DNA of 64,000 nt from Octopus sinensis (lineage: Eukaryota), in assembly GCF_006345805.1 (NCBI RefSeq), contig NC_043014.1, positions 51,274,001-51,338,000 on the forward strand, given 5' to 3'. Position numbers and translations under genes: made by a program. Below are positions 6,185 to 62,527 of the stretch, in pieces (positions within the stretch are counted from its first letter, which is position 1; each line of letters begins with the position of its first letter). The notes below the pieces were generated by a model that saw only the letters and a program-made list of their open reading frames with translations, was not told the DNA's origin and made no database searches.

Positions 6185-6475
6185 CATGTATTTATACATA
6201 TATACACGTTCAGTTAATTTTGAAAATAACTTTAAGTTGTAAGAATTTATGAAAACAATGTCTTTCCTTGAGTTGCTAGTTTTTCAACAAAGCAATATGT
6301 GTGTGTACGGACAATCTATCGATATGATCAATGAAATTACAAAAAGTAAGAAGTGTTGTTTTTCAATCATAGAACCTAACAAGGTCTCAAACGAATTGTT
6401 AATAAAAATCGCTTAAAGAATCCCCCGTATTCTTTCCAGCACAAACAATATTTTACTTTTTAGGCCTCAATGCAT

Positions 6476-6660
6476 GGCGTTTTAGCAGAATCCTTAAAAC
6501 ATCGGAAAAATTGCTGTGCGATGTTTACTTCACACAGTTCAAGTTTTCAGTTCAAATAACGCCGAGTTCAATTTTCGCTTTTATCCTTCCAAGGTCAATG
6601 AAATTATATACCAGTAAGGTCAGAGGTATCGAGAAATATCTGGTTTCGAAATTACCGGCT
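6476..6660 (+). mobile_element. SINE family B, degenerate
   Basis: GCAGAATC..GTTCAAATAACGCCGAG..GCTTTTATCCTTCCAAGGTCAATGAAATTATATACCAG aligns by eye to the 10381 copy. Confidence 0.6.
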
Positions 6661-9400: not shown

Positions 9401-9937
9401 CCCTACATCCATCTAATTCCCCATCTACCTCTCTTCCTACCTGTCTGCCTAGATTTCTTCATTTAGTTTGTATAAAAATGCTATCCAACAACACAAATGG
9501 CGTGCCTCTGTGCTTAAGACGTTTACCTCTCAAAATTCTGATCTTGGGTTCATTCTCATAGTGTAGCAGATTTGGCAACTGTCTTCAATATTGACCCTGG
9601 GACAACTAAAAATTTGACCTCAGAGTGTAAAGCCGGAACAAATACCTCTAAGCGTTTCCTCCGACGGGTTAACCATTCTCGCAGTGTGCTGTCTTAATAT
9701 AATTATATTGACCTAAAATCGAAACATCATCAATAACAGCAACAACGAACAAATAGAGCAGCAAGATGCTGTCTAATGAGCGAAACTAATTTAATTAAAG
9801 ATGCAGAACTTGTATTCCTCAAGGGAGTGCCCCGACGCTGGTAAGGGCGGAAGTGATGATCTATGTAAGGACAGTGTTTATGAGGTTGGAGGCAGTTTGG
9901 GCGGGGCTAAATTATGAACTTGATAATGAGGTAGACG

Positions 9938-10210
9938 TTGGTAGACGAGAAGCGTCTACTACAGCGGCTAGGACTACTAGATCACGGAATTTCACCTTGC
10001 TATGGGCTCGTCAGTGACAGATATCCAGCTGCGCGATAACAGCCGAATCTCCCATCAGCGATTTGTAGAATATCAATGGCTATTCAGGTAGTGATGTGGG
10101 GAATAGCCATGGGCTCAGCAATTTTGATGGGGAAGGTACTGCATATTATGAACACCGAAAGGATGAATGGCAAAGTGGCGCCCAAATAGAATTTGAACTT
10201 AGAACGTAAA
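9938..10210. repeat. ~270-bp direct repeat, copy 1
   Basis: Close match, with scattered substitutions, to 11099-11370 (offset ~1161). Confidence 0.95.
9964..10032 (-). ncRNA. extended type I hammerhead ribozyme motif, copy 1
   Basis: Minus strand reads GCUGGA-UAU-CUGUCA-CUGACGA-GCC-CAUAGCAA-GGU-GAAA-UU-CCGU-GAUC-UAGUAG-UCCUAGC. CUGANGA/GAAA core intact, AUC triplet (cut after 9980), bulged stem I. Confidence 0.75.
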
Positions 10211-10380
10211 AGTGAAGTTGAGCATAACAACTGTGATGAGGATGATGATGATAGTTGCTGTGGTGTTTCGGGTGGTAATGTGGATAATGCTGATCGTGAT
10301 GATGACGGCGATGATTGCGGGAAGATATTAGGAATAAAGTAAGAAGCGGTGGAGCAGATTAACGATCTGTGTGATGTTGT

Positions 10381-10793
10381 GGCGAGCTGGCAGAAACGTT
10401 AGCACGGCGGGCGAAAGGCTTAGCGGTATTTCGTCTGCCGTTACGTTCTGAGTTCAAATTCCGCCGAGGTCGACTTTGCCTTTCATTCTTTCGGGGTCGA
10501 TAAATCAAGTACCTGTTACGCACTGGGGTCGATATAATAGACTTAATCCGTTTGTCTGTCCTTGTTTGTCCCCTCTGTGTTTAGCCCCTCGTGGGTAGTA
10601 AAGAAATACGTATTTCGTCAACCGCATACGTTCTGAGTTCAAATCCCGCCGAGGTCGACTTTACTTTCATTCTTTCGGGGTCGATTAAATAAGTACCAGT
10701 TACGCACTGGGGTCGATGTAATCGGCTTAATCCGTTTGTCTTTCCTTCTTTGTCCTCTCTGTGTTTAGCCCCTCGTGGGTAGTCAAGAAATAG
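10381..10793 (+). mobile_element. SINE family B with tandem duplication of its 3' part
   Basis: Head GGCGAGCTGGCAGAAACGTTAGCAC, B-box GAGTTCAAATTCC, CTTTCATTCTTTCGGGGTCGA; ~10426-10608 is repeated at ~10610-10792. Confidence 0.9.
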
Positions 10794-11098
10794 GTAATGA
10801 AGTATTCACGAAGATTATGGTGGCGGAGAAGAGGGAGATGGTGAGCAAGTTGATGACAACGACGAGGAAGAAAGTTTTAATTCATGATGTTGATATTGAT
10901 GAGAATTGTATCCCCAAAATGATCCTGTTGGGAATATATAGGGGAAAAAAGCAGGGATAAAATATTTCTTTCTAAAAGGCAATCTTGATCTCTATCTTAA
11001 TGTAGATGTAGTGTTAGAACACAGAATCCTGCGTTATTTACCTTGAGAGGATCTCTGATATGGACTTGTGCTCCATAAAAGTACTCTTCGTTGTCTCA

Positions 11099-11370
11099 TT
11101 GGTAGACGAGAAGCGTCTACTCCAGCGGCTAGGTCTACTAGATCACGGAATTTCACCTTGCTATGGGCTCGTCAGTGACAGATATCCAACAGCGCGATAA
11201 CAGCCGAATCTCCCATCAGCAATTTGTAGAATATCAATGTCTATTCAGGTACTGGTGTGGGGAATAGCCATGGGCTCAGCAATTTTGATGGGGAAGGTAC
11301 TGCATTTTATCAACCCCGAAAGAATGAACGGCAAAGTTGGCCGGAATAGAATTTGAACTCAGAACGTAAA
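11099..11370. repeat. ~270-bp direct repeat, copy 2
   Basis: Matches 9938-10210. Confidence 0.95.
11125..11193 (-). ncRNA. extended type I hammerhead ribozyme motif, copy 2
   Basis: Core and stems II/III identical to copy 1; proximal stem I UCUGUCA/UAGUAGA; predicted cut after 11141. Confidence 0.72.
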
Positions 11371-11434
11371 TTGCTGGATGAGATGCTGCTAAGCAATTTT
11401 TTCAGACACGCTACCGATTTTGCCAGCTCACCGC
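11270..11434 (-). mobile_element. SINE family B, diverged, head retained
   Basis: Reverse complement reads GCGGTGAGCTGGCAAAATCGGTAGCG...TTACGTTCTGAGTTCAAATTC...CATTCTTTCGGGGTTGATAAAATGCAGTACC. Confidence 0.8.
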
Positions 11435-42073: not shown

Positions 42074-42548
42074 TCATCATCATTGTTCGACCGTGGCCGA
42101 GACAATGGAATTTACCATGCTACGCCAGACTTCACGGTCCATCATGTCATTACGGAGGTCCTGTTGCTGGATGCCTGTATCCCTGGAGATTATATCAGGG
42201 TAGGAGAGTGTGCGCCCTCTGGTATCGCGAGCAGATGGCTTCCAGGAGAGAAGAGTAGAAATTACCTCGTTTTCAGCTCTACAACAATGTCCAGCAAACT
42301 GGACTCTCCTACCTTTCACAAGAGATGATACAGGTGGTAATTTCCCATATATTTGTACTTTGGTTGGATGACGCTTCCACTAGAGATTTTGAGCTCTCAT
42401 AAGGAGGCGAGTGTAAGTTACACCCAACCGCCTTCTCAAGTTTCTTTGATAACGTCCAAGTTTCTGAGCCGTATAGTAGAATTGGTTCGACTGTGGCTTT
42501 GAAGATTTCAAGTTTGAAGTCTCTGCGTAGATTTGATGAGCAGATCTC
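42074..42548 (-). mobile_element. 5'-truncated RTE-clade LINE (ORF C-terminus)
   Basis: Minus translation across frameshifts: ..IFKATVEPILLYGSETWTL..WKRHPTK..RRVQFAGHC..DREVWR..*, then a (TGA)n tail. Confidence 0.88.
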
Positions 42549-43357
42549 ATGATAGTCATGTATATCTTTATAGGAAAACGATCGTTTTAACCAGAAATAA
42601 TTTTGAAATTCAGTACCTGAAGACTATAGACAAGCCTGCATAACTAATGGTAAGAGTTGTAATCACTTAAAATCATTAATCAGATATTCAGCGATGTTTA
42701 TTCATAAGGGTCGCGATATTTCCAGATGTATTGATGTAGCATTTAATGAGATGGAAAGAGGGACGTTTTCATGGACGCTGAAACAAATGAAAGATATCGT
42801 CTCATGAATAATGGTTACCAAAGTTTCTATAGTTGAATTATTTCACTAGGGATTTTATTCCTATCTTATTGACGCAACAGGCAAGTTCTTGACCTTTAGG
42901 GCCAAGTGGGATTTGACAACTTACTACGGTTGTCCAAGAATCAAAATAAATTATCAATCAAAATGTCATGCGTTGCTTTTACCCTTGTTGTCAAAACAAC
43001 TCCCCCACCACCACCACACAAATACATGTATGTAACTATAACTGCGTAGAAAATGCCTATTAACCATTTCAAAACACACTTAAATCATTTAAACATTTAT
43101 TTGGTGTCACTGACACGGTCGCATCGCATTCGGTTTCTGGTGAGATCTTTGATAGGCATATATAGATTCTAGGGTTACGGTTTTTTTAATCTATATATTT
43201 TACTTTCTGTAATTGCTTTTGGTTTAAACAAACGTTTTCAGATCAAATCACATTCACTGCAAATACATCTCCGAAATTTTAAATATATCTGTCTGTCTCT
43301 ATCTTTATCTACCTCTGTCTGTCTGTCTATCTCTGTCTGTCTGTCTACCTCTGTCTA

Positions 43358-50587: not shown

Positions 50588-51202
50588 AGAAGCTCGGACA
50601 AAAATAGACTTGGTTCTACGAGTATTAGGAATTAACGCGAACTCTAAAAGCAAATGGTGAATTTAATCCACGCCAAATAAATACGTACGTACGCACGCAT
50701 ACAGACATATATACAGATGCGTGTATATATATATGCGTTGTTTATAAGAAACCGCAAGACCGTAAGCAGGCGGGGCATGTTGCTACTCAAGAGGTCGCAA
50801 ATGGCAACGAAGCGATTTTGACTAACGATTGACTAGTTAACAGAAAGGTTAAGCAATGAATCAGTTAGCTATTTGGTTAAATGTTTAATTAAGTGTCTTG
50901 CTCCAAATTACAACAATCTGAACCGTGTGATGCCAGACGCGCTCTCACATACCTATATAACGTCCATATATCGCATGCATTACGTCCCATGTATAACGTC
51001 CATAAATCCCATGGGATTGTATACTTACAATCCCATGTATAAAATAATAATGCAATCGTTGTATACAATGCTCAGGTGCATTACAACAAAGTTTTAACTC
51101 CAAGAGGACGCCTGCTCTGGCTGGTTAACGATGCATCCGACATATGTTGCAGGCAGGGGAGTGAATCTCTACCATTTCCTAGCTAGCTGACATGATCACC
51201 AG

Positions 51203-51242
51203 ACCAGGCCGGTTTCGAGCTATTTTTCCCATCTTCAGTGGT
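51203..51242 (-). ncRNA. minimal type I hammerhead motif, probably inactivated
   Basis: ACCA-CUGAAGA-UGGGAAAAAUAGCUC-GAAACCGGCC-UGGU; the triplet is GCC instead of GUC. Confidence 0.6.
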
Positions 51243-53865
51243 GGACACCTGCCTGCTAGAGTTACACAATCTCTGAGGATTAACAGCAATACAGCTTATG
51301 CTATGCAATGACAGTTTGTCGATGCCAAACATAAACACACACGTACACATGCGTACATGGAAGCGTTGAAATATTCCAGTCTGTGATATGTAAAATAATG
51401 CTTTCTCTCTCTCTCTCCCTCCTCTCTCTCTCTTTCTCTTCCACACACACATATCACAGAGGGTGGTGGAAATAATCTATATGTATTAGAAATCTCTTGC
51501 TGAAACTAATATTAAAAATATATTAAAGTCATATTAATATGGAAACGGTAAAAAAAAATGGGGAAAAAATATATTTAGCACTAGAATTTTAGTTCCAATT
51601 TCAATAACGAATATATTCGTCTGATTTTTATCTATGAAGATATGTGAATGATATCGATTTCAAATTTTGAGTAAAATACAAAAAAGAAGTATATATAAAT
51701 AAAAATTTGAATTAAATCTGAAATATGAATTAGCAAACACATTTATCAATATACAGAGACATGTCTACGTACATAAACACACTCACTTTGCTGCTTTATT
51801 TGATATATATATATATATATATGTTTGATTGTTGCTTCACTCATTGAACTGCGACCAAGCTGGAGCATCGCCTTAAAGTGTTTAGTCGAATAAAGCAACA
51901 CGTGTAATTTAACTTTTTAACTATGATACTTACTTTCTCGATCCGTTAGTTAGCGAAGTCAAGACCAAGCCGTTAGGTTTTAAGTCGTACTTGGGTTAAA
52001 CACTACACAAAACACACAGCACCTCCATATATATCTATAGTAAATTGATCTGCGTAAAAAGGCCAACTAGAAGTGCACACCATCTAATTAGTCCAATATT
52101 AATGCATTCGTTTCACTCCACATGTATTACACGCGCTATTAAGAGAACAAATGTGTTTCTCGGGCACTGTTTATTATAAGAAACCAAAAAGTTTAAAGTG
52201 AAGTGAAGTGAAGCACCATGTCGTGTATGTGTGTGTGTATATATATACACACACCATGACATCGTTTTCCAGCTTCGATTCCACCTGCCAGTTTTTAGTC
52301 GACCCCACCACGACAGGTTATATAGAAGACGGACGCTCCAGATACTGCGCAGTGGAACTGCCCTACAGTTGAGGAGCAAATTTATTTCTCACACAAAAAT
52401 GTGTGTGTGTGTGTGAGGGAGAAAGAGAGAGTTTGTGTAGTGAATATAAATCTACCAATACCTCATTCTTAAGCGGCAAAAGTTATTAGATGCTCCAAGC
52501 GGCAAGAGCTTCGCGTGTGAGACGAAGTGACTCAAGTATTACGTAGTAACTTTGTAGCTGCGGCCGATTAAATGTTAAACATATATATTGCTCTATTCAA
52601 TTTTATTCATCCTTTTTCTTCTTCCCCCTCACCTTTCCCACTCTGTATATATTTATTCATTCATCTCTCTCTTTTTATTGTGTGTATATTATATATATAT
52701 ATATTATATTATATATATATATATATATATATAATCTCGATAGATAGACAGATGTATATGTAGACTAATAGGTGTACGTGCATGCATAGATATACTTAAA
52801 TTTGTATGCGTTATACGTGACAGAAAGAACACAACAAAGCCGCCATGATATATATATATCAGACTCCCTAAAATAATCCTGACCTATTATATTATTAATA
52901 TGCGGCGAGAGATGTTCCTGGTGAACACTTTGACAACTTGACCTATAATATCACAGCTGACATTAATAACATAATTATTATTTGCATGGCAGGAAATCAG
53001 CCATTTTGGTTTTCAAAATTTATTTTCCGTTTTTTTCTGAACTTATTATAATACTTTTTTTCTTTATTATTAACAAAGTACTTCCTGTATCTGATCTAAA
53101 CTACACGACTGTGATTTATTTTCTTTCTGCTGTGCATTTAGAAAGAATAAAAAATAGCCTCTAGATGAAATAGCAATTTTGTATTGAAGGGTCTTCAAGA
53201 AATAGTATGGTTTGACTTTGTATTATAAGCAAACGAATCGCCTTAAAACTTACATCAGTTGTAGTTCCGGAGACCCTCACCCAAGATATTGATTATTTTG
53301 TACGTAAATCTCTAGAACTACTATGCATAAAACAATTTGTGTTAGTCACGATTGGAGGGTCTTTCATTGCAGGTCTACTCCCTCTGGGCTCCACTAATAC
53401 TATGCCACGCAATGACAAAACAACTATTTTATTTTTGTAGAACTTTATTCGTTTTCGATTCAAATTATGACATGGCCTTACATATCATGAAATTCGATAA
53501 ACTAATCATCAATCAGTAATGAATGATCATTTAATTTGCGAATTAACACAGTCATTAGAGAGTTAGATACAACGCTACATAGTGTTTCTTCAGACACAGG
53601 GCTATCTTAGTTCAAATCCCTCTAAAATCCACTTCCCGGTCCAACCTTTCAGCCATAGATCAACTATCGACTGGCACGCCATCGGCTACAACTACATGTG
53701 CTCCAATTTATCCGATCAACGGAAATGCCAGCTCGTGAAGTTAACCTCCAAATCTGTTAATCGGTTATAATCTCCATTGCAGGCATATCATTTTCCGATA
53801 TATCTCATCGTTATGTATTTTATGAATGTGTCTTGCTTGGTTTTTCACTACTATTTTATTATGGA

Positions 53866-60381: not shown

Positions 60382-61740
60382 GAGTGAGAGAGCAGTTCAT
60401 GATTTCAAAGTGACGCAGGAGTATAAATGTACGATGTCCAATATACACATCATGACTACCTGTCTCATAACATTACTTCATGCACATGCATTACAACCAT
60501 ATGTGTGCAAAATTGTGGTCTCATATCAAGATAACCAGCGCGTGACCGTGCAGGTGAGGCCCAGTTAGTTTCTTCCTTACGCCGAGTAGCCCAGGCCGCA
60601 CAAAAGGCTTCGAAGTATATACTGACCATGCAGAGGCTTCTGGTTCCACCTCTCCTCAATTTGTGTCTGTCTGTTCTTATTTGCAGTCTGATCCATTTTA
60701 CGCTTTGCGAGGCAGTGGTTTCAATTTCTTCATCTAACTCAACTCAAGGTTAATGCCAAGTTCCCTTGTTAATTGGCAAGCCTCCTTGGCAATAGAATGC
60801 GATCATTTGCAGCTTTCGTGTTTGCACACAAGCTGCGGCATCCATTCATCTGTACCAGATAAGAACCTGTTCACTGCTATTGTGAAGTCCTTATAGTCCA
60901 GTTCTACCTGCATCATTCCTCTTTCCCCCATTACTTTTTATTAGGTACAGACGATCAATATCTGCTTTTGGGCGGTGCATGTCTTAGATATTAGTAGTTT
61001 TCTTGTCTTCCTGTCCAGGCGTTGGAGTTCTGTAAGATTCCAGTAAATGTTGTTAATGGCTTCGATACATTTTTGGAGATGAGTTCAGTTTTTAGTCTTA
61101 TTCTCCTGTTATACACCTTTCTTTTTATTTGTCCCTTCATAGTAGCAATGCCGTATACCATCTCCTTAGTTTATCCCCAGGTATTTATAGCTTTCTTGTG
61201 GCTCAAGCACCTTGATGGTAGTGTTTGTATCTAATTTGATGAAAGCTGTTTGCTTGAGCTTGCCTTATACGAAAGTTTCTTTAGCTCACTTACCAAGGCC
61301 AAATGCCATCCCGATGCCATTGCCGAACTCTTTAACAGTTGTAAACATCCTCGCTAGCTCTTCGTCATTTACAGCAAACAGCTGTAGATCCTCCATATAA
61401 AACAGATGGTTTACTATAATATCATAAATTTTGGATCCATACCTGGTGTTATTCAGTTCGTTTCAGAGTGGGACCAGAGCCATGCAAATGGTGTATGAAT
61501 CACCCTGAAAGATGCCTCATTTGATATTGATGTTATAGATTGACTCATCCCATTACTGCAGTTTAGGAGGAGACGTATATTACACTCGGCCAAGCTACCT
61601 TGTAAGAATTTGGAGGCTACAGGAGAGATCTTATATATCTCAAGCTAATTATGTAGGACAATATCAAACGCTTTATTGTAGTCTATCTTTGCCATATTCA
61701 GGTTTATTCTTGTTGCTCCGGCAATTATCTACAATAATTT
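60382..61740 (-). mobile_element. decayed, 5'-truncated R4/Dong-clade non-LTR retrotransposon (RT relic)
   Basis: Minus-strand motifs in order: IDYNKAFDIVLH, GIFQGDS, HLFYMEDLQL, GIGMAFGLGK, ESYKYLG, HRPKADIDRLY; short (TAA)n at both ends. Confidence 0.85.
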
Positions 61741-61754
61741 TATTATTATTATTG

Positions 61755-61930
61755 TAATTTACCAATTTAATTAGCCCTGTGCTATGACGTTTATTGCTAT
61801 CCCTAATTGAAGAATAATGATTGGAAATTATCTTAGAAAACTGGGAAGAGGATGTGCCAATGTAGAAGTAGACATCGGTACCGCAAGAAATTTTACATTG
61901 GTATATAGAATTCCTGATCTTAGAATTATT
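61755..61930 (-). pseudogene. GIY-YIG endonuclease fragment of a Penelope-like element
   Basis: SIYQCKISCGTDVYFYIGTSSSQFSKIISNHYSSIRDSNKRHSTGL fits the pattern IY..YIG..F.(R)..NH..S......T.L. Confidence 0.7.
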
Positions 61931-61990
61931 AGACATAAACTTGAATCTGTTGGGGTCGTCCTCAGAGGCCAAAACTAATTTTTTAATTGC

Positions 61991-62032
<42 letters not shown>

Positions 62033-62527
62033 ATTTATTTACAATGAAAGAAACTATTATATAGTATAACATATGTGATGTCAAAACACAATTCCATTAT
62101 TTATGGTAGATTTAAAGGTATATGTTGATTCCTGTTTTTCCTGTATATATTCAAGGCACGGCATCTTCTATCACTGCCATGTGTGTGACTCGAATCATAC
62201 AAAATAAAGCTTCAAATATTAATGGCGGATATAAATTGTAAAAATGCTGTTAAGTATCTCCACTTGATGAGCCATTATCGCTACTGTTATGTATAAACAC
62301 GTTTTTACTCTACTCTTTAAGGTCTTGCCTGTCTGTTAATATCTTAAGTGAGTTTTTGAGTACATGCGTGAGATTGTGATTGGAGTTTTATGTGTAATTA
62401 ACACCAATAGAACTGGAATGCGGAACACGTGTTGCTACATGTGTGTGTGTATGTGGGAGGGGGGGTAATTATTATTTGAGCGCTGTATGTTCCTGTATTG
62501 ATTCGTTTGATTAATTAGTTCCTAGGC

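Follow-up and report, generated by a model that had tools for sequence, protein, structure and literature searches.

A probable fossil retrozyme insertion with two decayed hammerheads in Octopus sinensis, and a dispersed family with Penelope-like insertion ends

Two type I hammerhead ribozymes lie in the same orientation in the genome of Octopus sinensis, each within one of two direct repeats. With good confidence, the locus can be read as one truncated insertion of a 346-nt repeat that is fused to a SINE, together with a partial copy of 270 bp for which a later local duplication is likely. Under this reading both hammerheads are predicted to be crippled, and the family would have spread as a proposed retrozyme with the enzymes of Penelope-like elements (PLEs).

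The window is the whole stretch of DNA that was analysed, 64,000 nucleotides in length, and positions refer to it. The features of the locus are the following.

11277 to 11432, minus strand: fragment of a tRNA-type SINE with an A/B-box-like head and a truncated tail, joined to the 5' end of retrozyme copy 2
10974 to 11276, minus strand: retrozyme copy 2, monomer positions 210-346 then 1-167 (0.88 unit), 83% identical to the family majority
11121 to 11197, minus strand: decayed type I hammerhead of copy 2, predicted cut between 11141 and 11140
11102 to 11120, minus strand: 7-bp hairpin after the copy 2 hammerhead, found across the family alignment; internal, not an element end
10380 to 10796, plus strand: two tandem copies of an abundant SINE with a 184-nt period, opposite in orientation to the retrozyme
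10116 to 10209, minus strand: duplicate of the SINE fragment, forming the 5' portion of repeat copy 1, from sequence alignment
9936 to 10115, minus strand: retrozyme copy 1, monomer positions 210-346 then 1-44 (0.52 unit), a partial duplicate of copy 2
9960 to 10036, minus strand: decayed type I hammerhead of copy 1, predicted cut between 9980 and 9979

The direct repeats measure 272 and 271 nt (about 9938-10209 and 11099-11369) and differ at 18 places in a pairwise alignment. The predicted cleavage base, C17, falls at 9980 in copy 1 and at 11141 in copy 2, which agrees with the initial annotation of repeats of about 270 bp spaced by about 1161 bp. About 94 nt of each repeat is SINE fragment rather than retrozyme; 10 of the differences fall in this part and 8 in the other 178 nt. 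Both copies have the same 5' junction and start with the same SINE fragment, and each departs from the family majority at 34 positions, 30 of them common to the two. The common junction and departures indicate that one altered insertion was later duplicated locally. The 3' limit of copy 2 is the tail-less 3' end of the family. Both copies had been thought to end at the 7-bp hairpin; this holds for copy 1, which stops just past it, but copy 2 runs on as family sequence to 10974. At the 3' junction of copy 1 (9919-9945, minus strand) the 8-nt hairpin arm is repeated, which may be a mark left by templated repair when the duplication formed.

Between the copies lie mostly the two opposite-strand SINEs, whose contig depth in read data is very high, and low-complexity DNA. 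The SINE fragment at 11277-11432 is 74% identical, over 11295-11432, to the SINE at 10380-10610; the boxes in its head resemble the A- and B-box consensus. No tRNA genes were found, and microsatellites dominated the output of a repeat search of the whole window.

Contigs from read data bear on whether the duplication is real. Both copies are covered in X18 and X19 (one study, possibly the source of the assembly), and X19 has contigs that span each outer junction of copy 1. In a second study, X1 and X2 contigs connect copy 1 with the flank downstream of it. The duplication is therefore not a mis-assembly. X20 gives no cover over parts of copy 1, a contig gap that carries no weight. In X1, X2 and X3, which are guessed to be RNA runs, contigs read across the predicted cut sites at a depth of 3-10; contigs of this kind show neither ends nor circles. 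At 11101 a single, weak X3 contig (depth 3.6) has a 17-letter loose end that resembles a template-switch adaptor; if it is one, its RNA would read the plus strand, antisense to the hammerhead.

The spacing of the hammerheads had suggested that a minus-strand transcript is cut at both, and that the 1161-nt piece circularises as a monomer in the manner of an LTR-type retrozyme. The geometry is right, neither copy has lost a core base and the two cores do not differ, and a SINE head with promoter-like boxes stands upstream in the same orientation. However, the family unit is 346 nt long, and a second 1161-nt unit is absent among the 40 scored of 105 candidate matches, the best other match reaching 85%. 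The spacer is SINE plus low-complexity DNA, the same stem mismatches occur in both ribozymes, and the hammerhead is not formed in the predicted fold of the circle. A run of four T is a Pol III termination signal; a Pol III transcript from the SINE would meet one at 11080 and four more before copy 1. The window arrangement does not include two consecutive full units with complete hammerheads, consisting as it does of 0.88 and 0.52 unit with SINE DNA between. Among the joints listed for the read contigs, which show presence only, none is the joint of a 1161-nt circle. In X11, a single contig leads from 11270 back to 11011 through 80 intervening letters, which a genomic tandem explains as well as a circle. 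The proposed cutting and circularisation is thus scarcely credible as an account of the locus, and it is extremely improbable that the 1161-nt circle forms in vivo.

Superficially, hammerhead-bearing direct repeats flanking a spacer of about 1 kb recall plant LTR retrozymes. These have type III hammerheads, more than 55% GC, PBS/PPT and multi-copy units (PMC7229834, bioRxiv 2026.07.22.740005), whereas the window arrangement is type I, has 44% GC and is seen once. An LTR-type retrozyme with a 1161-nt unit was rejected because the hammerhead is type I, not type III, and because the unit is not repeated among the scored matches.

The motifs CUGACGA and GAAA and the AUC triplet were reported on the minus strand and are found in both copies, and the assignment to type I with a bulged, extended stem I is supported. 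All bases of the catalytic core (CUGANGA / GAAA / UH) are intact in both window copies. The stems first described are indeed the helices of a type I hammerhead, but they are weaker than was stated, with 2 mismatches and 4 G-U among 13 pairs. The pairs are A-U, C.A, U-G, G-U, U-A and C-G in stem I, G-U, C-G, C-G and C.A in stem II, and A-U, U-A and U-G in stem III. Each hammerhead has one C.A mismatch in stem I, at pair 2, and another in stem II, besides extra G-U pairs and a stem III palindrome that is broken; in copy 2, U1.7 is also replaced by A. Because of the common mismatches in stems I and II and the broken palindrome, both window ribozymes are probably crippled.

Models of their folding point the same way. 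With the hammerhead fold imposed, the energies of the window copies are -2.1 and +0.9 kcal/mol, against -19.7 for the natural copy L031, and the palindrome duplex has -2.7 against -12.9. Unconstrained folds of the window copies are no better than shuffles (z -0.07 to 0.98). The probability of stem I pairing is low also in better copies (0.04 for L050, 0.21 for the majority), so folding alone is no proof that the window copies are dead. The 7-bp hairpin carries paired changes, hinting at a subfamily source. Together with the intact catalytic bases and the identical core, this means that some departures may be subfamily traits and not decay. Detectable cleavage by a window copy is predicted to be unlikely. 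The family model R1, built with both copies included, scores copy 1 at 66.2 bits and copy 2 at 60.1 bits; the search with Rfam models that had been recommended gave no hammerhead match in copy 1 or copy 2, also with the E-value limit relaxed to 5 and to 10.

An identical core between substituted flanks could also mean that the hammerheads were retained for a host function, for instance to cut a passing transcript. The core identity is confirmed, with 0 differences in 47 nt against 18 in 225 elsewhere in the repeat (Fisher p=0.05), and the copy 2 region occurs as well, at about 91% identity, in a run labelled organism C. The contrast is borderline, however, and within the retrozyme part it is not significant (Fisher p=0.11). 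The stems are broken, the X1, X2 and X3 contigs carry a further stem II change at 11165, and no host gene was recognised when the ORF list of the window was read by eye. A host function is very unlikely on this evidence, and a decayed insertion remains the preferred reading.

The initial annotation had called for a search for further genomic copies, and this revealed a dispersed family. The locus fits what the annotation gave as its fallback, a dead relic duplicated locally, but these other copies show that the relic is not alone. With the hammerhead part as query, the 105 candidates come from the species' own genome of 2.72 Gb, and the 38 scored matches outside the window are 72-85% identical; the part 3' of the cut yields 763 candidates against these 105. 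A 35-nt core pattern has one exact match and at least 84 matches within 3 mismatches, and a reversed control has 0.

Aligned copies pass from their end straight into their own start, with a period of 346 nt and 43% GC. The monomer is non-coding, its longest stop-free frame being 60 aa. More than one unit is present in 26 of 73 loci, and L014 holds 1.98 units head-to-tail. Across loci no upstream flank is shared except the monomer itself and common repeats. As a circle, the majority monomer is predicted to fold well (z=-6.1 against dinucleotide shuffles; antisense -4.6), and two natural monomers reach only -1.3 and -2.5.

Fragments longer than 150 nt (83 fragments) have a mean identity of 82% to the column majority and a maximum of 90%, and the family is thus old. 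The catalytic core is intact in 43 of the 61 family copies scored; intact core, absence of mismatches and the palindrome come together in 2 of the 61. No young or active subfamily was found, given the single exact core match, the two fully intact copies and a best non-local match of 84% in the sister family. On 40 fixed 10-kb stretches (400 kb) R1 gave 4 weak matches of 14-17.5 bits and no strong one, so that no genome copy number can be derived. In a metagenome scan the motif was matched 7 times, and outside the motif none of these sequences is homologous to the family. Judged by its sequence, the family is a non-LTR retrozyme of a cephalopod genome, and one that has probably long been inactive.

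Related repeats were also seen. A sister subfamily (L116, L120, L210-L227; 2519 candidates) has a period of 359-370 nt and up to 2.58 units; its dimers occur at 359 and 370 nt, and that of L116 is internally 98% identical. In the window itself, a third type I hammerhead relic with unrelated flanks lies at 51182-51260 on the minus strand (31.6 bits with R1). It belongs to another dispersed family, with 551 candidates and a different stem III palindrome in its relatives.

The family ribozyme has a stem I of six pairs followed by a 3-nt bulge and an extension, a stem II of ACCC/GGGU with the loop AUAGCA, and a stem III of 3 bp formed by the 10-nt self-complementary palindrome AUCACGUGAU. A pattern that fixes only core and palindrome finds 72 sites in several subfamilies with different stem II sequences. 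Short palindromic stems III are the basis of double-hammerhead cleavage (PMC4209133).

Covariation was scored on 53 rows, namely 51 of 70 distinct rows plus the two window copies; the 19 rows left out by eye are mostly truncated, chimeric or long in stem II. The score is 0.316 against 0.240+-0.011 for shuffles, none of 500 being as high, and slid controls give at most 0.150. Relatedness of the rows inflates such scores, and related rows can beat shuffles without any structure. Stem III is fixed by the search pattern and contributes no covariation. When all 70 distinct rows are counted, Watson-Crick pairing exceeds that of shuffles at pairs 1, 2 and 4 of stem II and at pair 4 of stem I (pair 2 of stem II in 52 of 70 rows against 21.8 shuffled). 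At the level of the family, helices I and II of the type I hammerhead are backed by this covariation, as far as aligned sequences can tell.

U1.7 is kept in at least 61 of the 70 rows and the last A of loop II in at least 65. These two are taken to be the partners of a reverse-Hoogsteen contact between the loops, which their conservation fits. A contact of this kind is conserved in hammerheads (PMC6155905).

Among known ribozymes, those of Schistosoma Sm-alpha and newt satellite-2 (Rfam Hammerhead_1, HH9) are similar in being type I with a 6-bp stem I, a bulge and an extension, a 6-nt loop II ending in A, and a conserved U at 1.7. They differ in that the window copies have no Rfam match and their relatives fall below gathering, and in that the tertiary contact of the octopus family is inferred from conservation only. 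The better-kept relatives match Hammerhead_HH9 at 33 bits (gathering 52) and Hammerhead_1 at 23.7 bits (gathering 34).

The manner in which the family was inserted can be read from its ends. These were mapped on 120 fragments in 73 loci, excluding the window and 15 overlapping or duplicated loci. The 3' ends concentrate at monomer positions 150-212 (82 of 120 fragments, against 23 of 120 for 5' ends). The 5' ends are scattered, only 3 lying within 10 nt of the cut, and 76 fragments pass through the cut/ligation point, partly owing to the choice of query. Inversions joined 5' to 5' occur in 29 of 73 loci and 3'-3' junctions in none. Many ends run into TA or CA repeats.

The 3' ends favour two positions separated by about 35 nt. 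Among the inverted loci, 15 have both outer ends at 150-212; 13 of these combine a long and a short end (offset 25-45 nt), 2 have both short and 0 both long (p=0.003), with a long/short threshold at position 182 that was chosen after inspection of the data and BLAST ends that are fuzzy. The sister subfamily shows two peaks again, with 10 of its 42 ends (27 loci) at 160-169, 0 at 170-189 and 19 at 190-219. Insertions of PLEs likewise include inverted copies and a 30-40-bp tail, often at one end only (PMC8557442), and the tail corresponds to two internal start sites of the reverse transcriptase (RT) in vitro (PMC11167929). The family is similar to PLEs in its scattered or truncated 5' ends, its inverted 5' copies and its one-sided, tail-like offset.

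A mechanism can be proposed on this basis. Multimeric transcripts would cleave themselves, probably in the form of double hammerheads that pair by way of the palindrome; the cut monomers would then be ligated into circles. A Penelope-like RT/GIY-YIG protein would nick AT-rich DNA, and reverse transcription would start at either of two internal sites, about 165 and about 200 nt past the cut. By crossing the ligation junction, it would yield insertions of 0.1-2.6 units; linear multimeric templates would yield the same tandems as circles. The anatomy of the insertions makes it likely that the family was mobilised by PLE enzymes; no sequence link to the PLE loci compared was found.

PLEs are present in the same genome. 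GIY-YIG matches over the cut-off number 150 among those scored, of 5029 candidates, and intact 765-aa ORFs with RT and GIY-YIG occur in copies 98-99% identical. The monomer has no blastn match to 42 GIY-YIG loci drawn from these 150, a small sample dominated by young families. A tblastn comparison gave no match either, and a 3'-end alignment does no better than shuffles (240 of 500).

Several PLE loci deserve description. A young family (L260, L261, L263, L264) has intact 765-aa ORFs and TA-repeat ends, with no canonical hammerhead found in its 3' region; in L260 the 3' tail equals the first bases of the element. At L263, hammerheads whose stem II loop is long and whose near-palindrome centres on CGA (positions 583 and 6518) sit in a 1.15-kb segment duplicated around a PLE. 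A second family (L262 and L231) has, 3' of the ORF and about 140 nt before the PLE 3' end as read by eye, a motif like a minimal hammerhead, its stem III a palindrome of 6 nt. L262 also carries, at 6430-6620 on the plus strand, a well-formed hammerhead with another palindrome in an apparent unit of about 165 nt whose first 20 nt recur; this may be a retrozyme family with a shorter unit. Some frames in the window were noted by eye, all on the minus strand: a stop-free one at 61673-62038 resembles a decayed GIY-YIG endonuclease fragment, a possible PLE relic, and those at 42080-42623 look like what is left of a LINE reverse transcriptase ORF towards its C terminus.

Alternatively, the 346-nt unit could be the pLTR of an autonomous PLE, the copies being 5'-truncated PLE ends and not a separate retrozyme. 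PLE pLTRs carry type I hammerheads (PMC4209133), and the patterns of truncation, inversion and tail are PLE-like. In L026 (1282-1825) a fragment of the endonuclease end of a PLE and a complete retrozyme monomer lie 5'-to-5' with a short TA run between them, the product of a single chimeric insertion or of two that hit one microsatellite. On the other hand, up to 1.98 units (2.58 in the sister subfamily) follow one another head-to-tail without an ORF between them, and a PLE protein match occurs in only 3 of 187 family loci. The canonical stems, 6 bp in stem I and 4 bp in stem II, also contrast with PLE hammerheads, described as minimal (PMC4209133). These points make the pLTR reading improbable. 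An autonomous PLE was rejected for lack of an RT plus GIY-YIG ORF in the element.

A retrozyme moved by PLE enzymes, the preferred reading, has features of both kinds of element. Like PLEs of the EN+ type, the family shows 5' truncation, partial tandems, inverted 5' copies and a 30-40-nt tail (PMC8557442, PMC11167929, PMC4209133), as well as AT-rich or microsatellite targets and a type I hammerhead with palindromic stem III. Unlike them it has no ORF, measures 346 nt rather than kilobases, carries a canonical and not a minimal hammerhead, and has no detectable homology to the 42 PLE loci compared.

Non-LTR retrozymes are defined as tandem, non-coding monomers of 150-400 nt with less than 45% GC and a type I hammerhead per unit; in metazoans they are described from coral, mussel (about 350-390 bp) and axolotl (331/353 nt) (PMC7229834). 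The octopus family agrees with metazoan members in its non-coding monomer, GC content below 45%, one canonical type I hammerhead per unit, tandems, highly self-paired predicted circle and the presence of PLEs in the same genome (PMC7229834). It differs in that its copies are old (mean 82% to the majority), dispersed, mostly of 0.2-2.6 units and frequently inverted, in that no long arrays were seen, and in its 3-bp stem III made of a 10-nt palindrome.

The locus had been suspected to belong to an uncharacterised cephalopod retrozyme. The family is indeed without a cephalopod description in the literature searched, but its unit is 346 nt and not 1161 nt. No cephalopod retrozyme was found in that literature; the repeat may already stand in Repbase or Dfam as an unclassified or Penelope family. 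The words 'octopus' and 'cephalopod' are absent from the main texts of PMC7229834, PMC7761336 and bioRxiv 2026.07.22.740005, and a term search of cephalopod repeat papers gave neither 'ribozyme' nor 'hammerhead'. This family extends retrozymes to a cephalopod.

That PLEs mobilise animal retrozymes has been proposed from the co-occurrence of the two (PMC7229834) and from pLTR homology in frogs, by authors who note limited evidence on the life cycle (bioRxiv 2026.07.22.740005). No report of the tail pattern in retrozymes was found in the literature searched. The locus itself probably makes nothing and is a fossil, an example of how paired hammerheads in repeat-rich genomes can be duplication products. 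What matters more is that insertion ends with the PLE pattern of tail and inversion are found in two subfamilies, and that the exact priming sites predicted from them are testable in an existing in vitro PLE assay (PMC11167929).

We lean, with modest confidence, towards a superfamily of palindrome-dimerising retrozymes that comprises several subfamilies and fossil insertions in the thousands, and in which the ends preserve the 5' inversion and the priming at two sites that are specific to Penelope. If this is true, the ends would be a direct genomic footprint of PLE enzymes copying and inserting the RNAs of animal retrozymes, probably as circles, and they would name the RNA sites for a test with the intact 765-aa PLE protein of the same genome.
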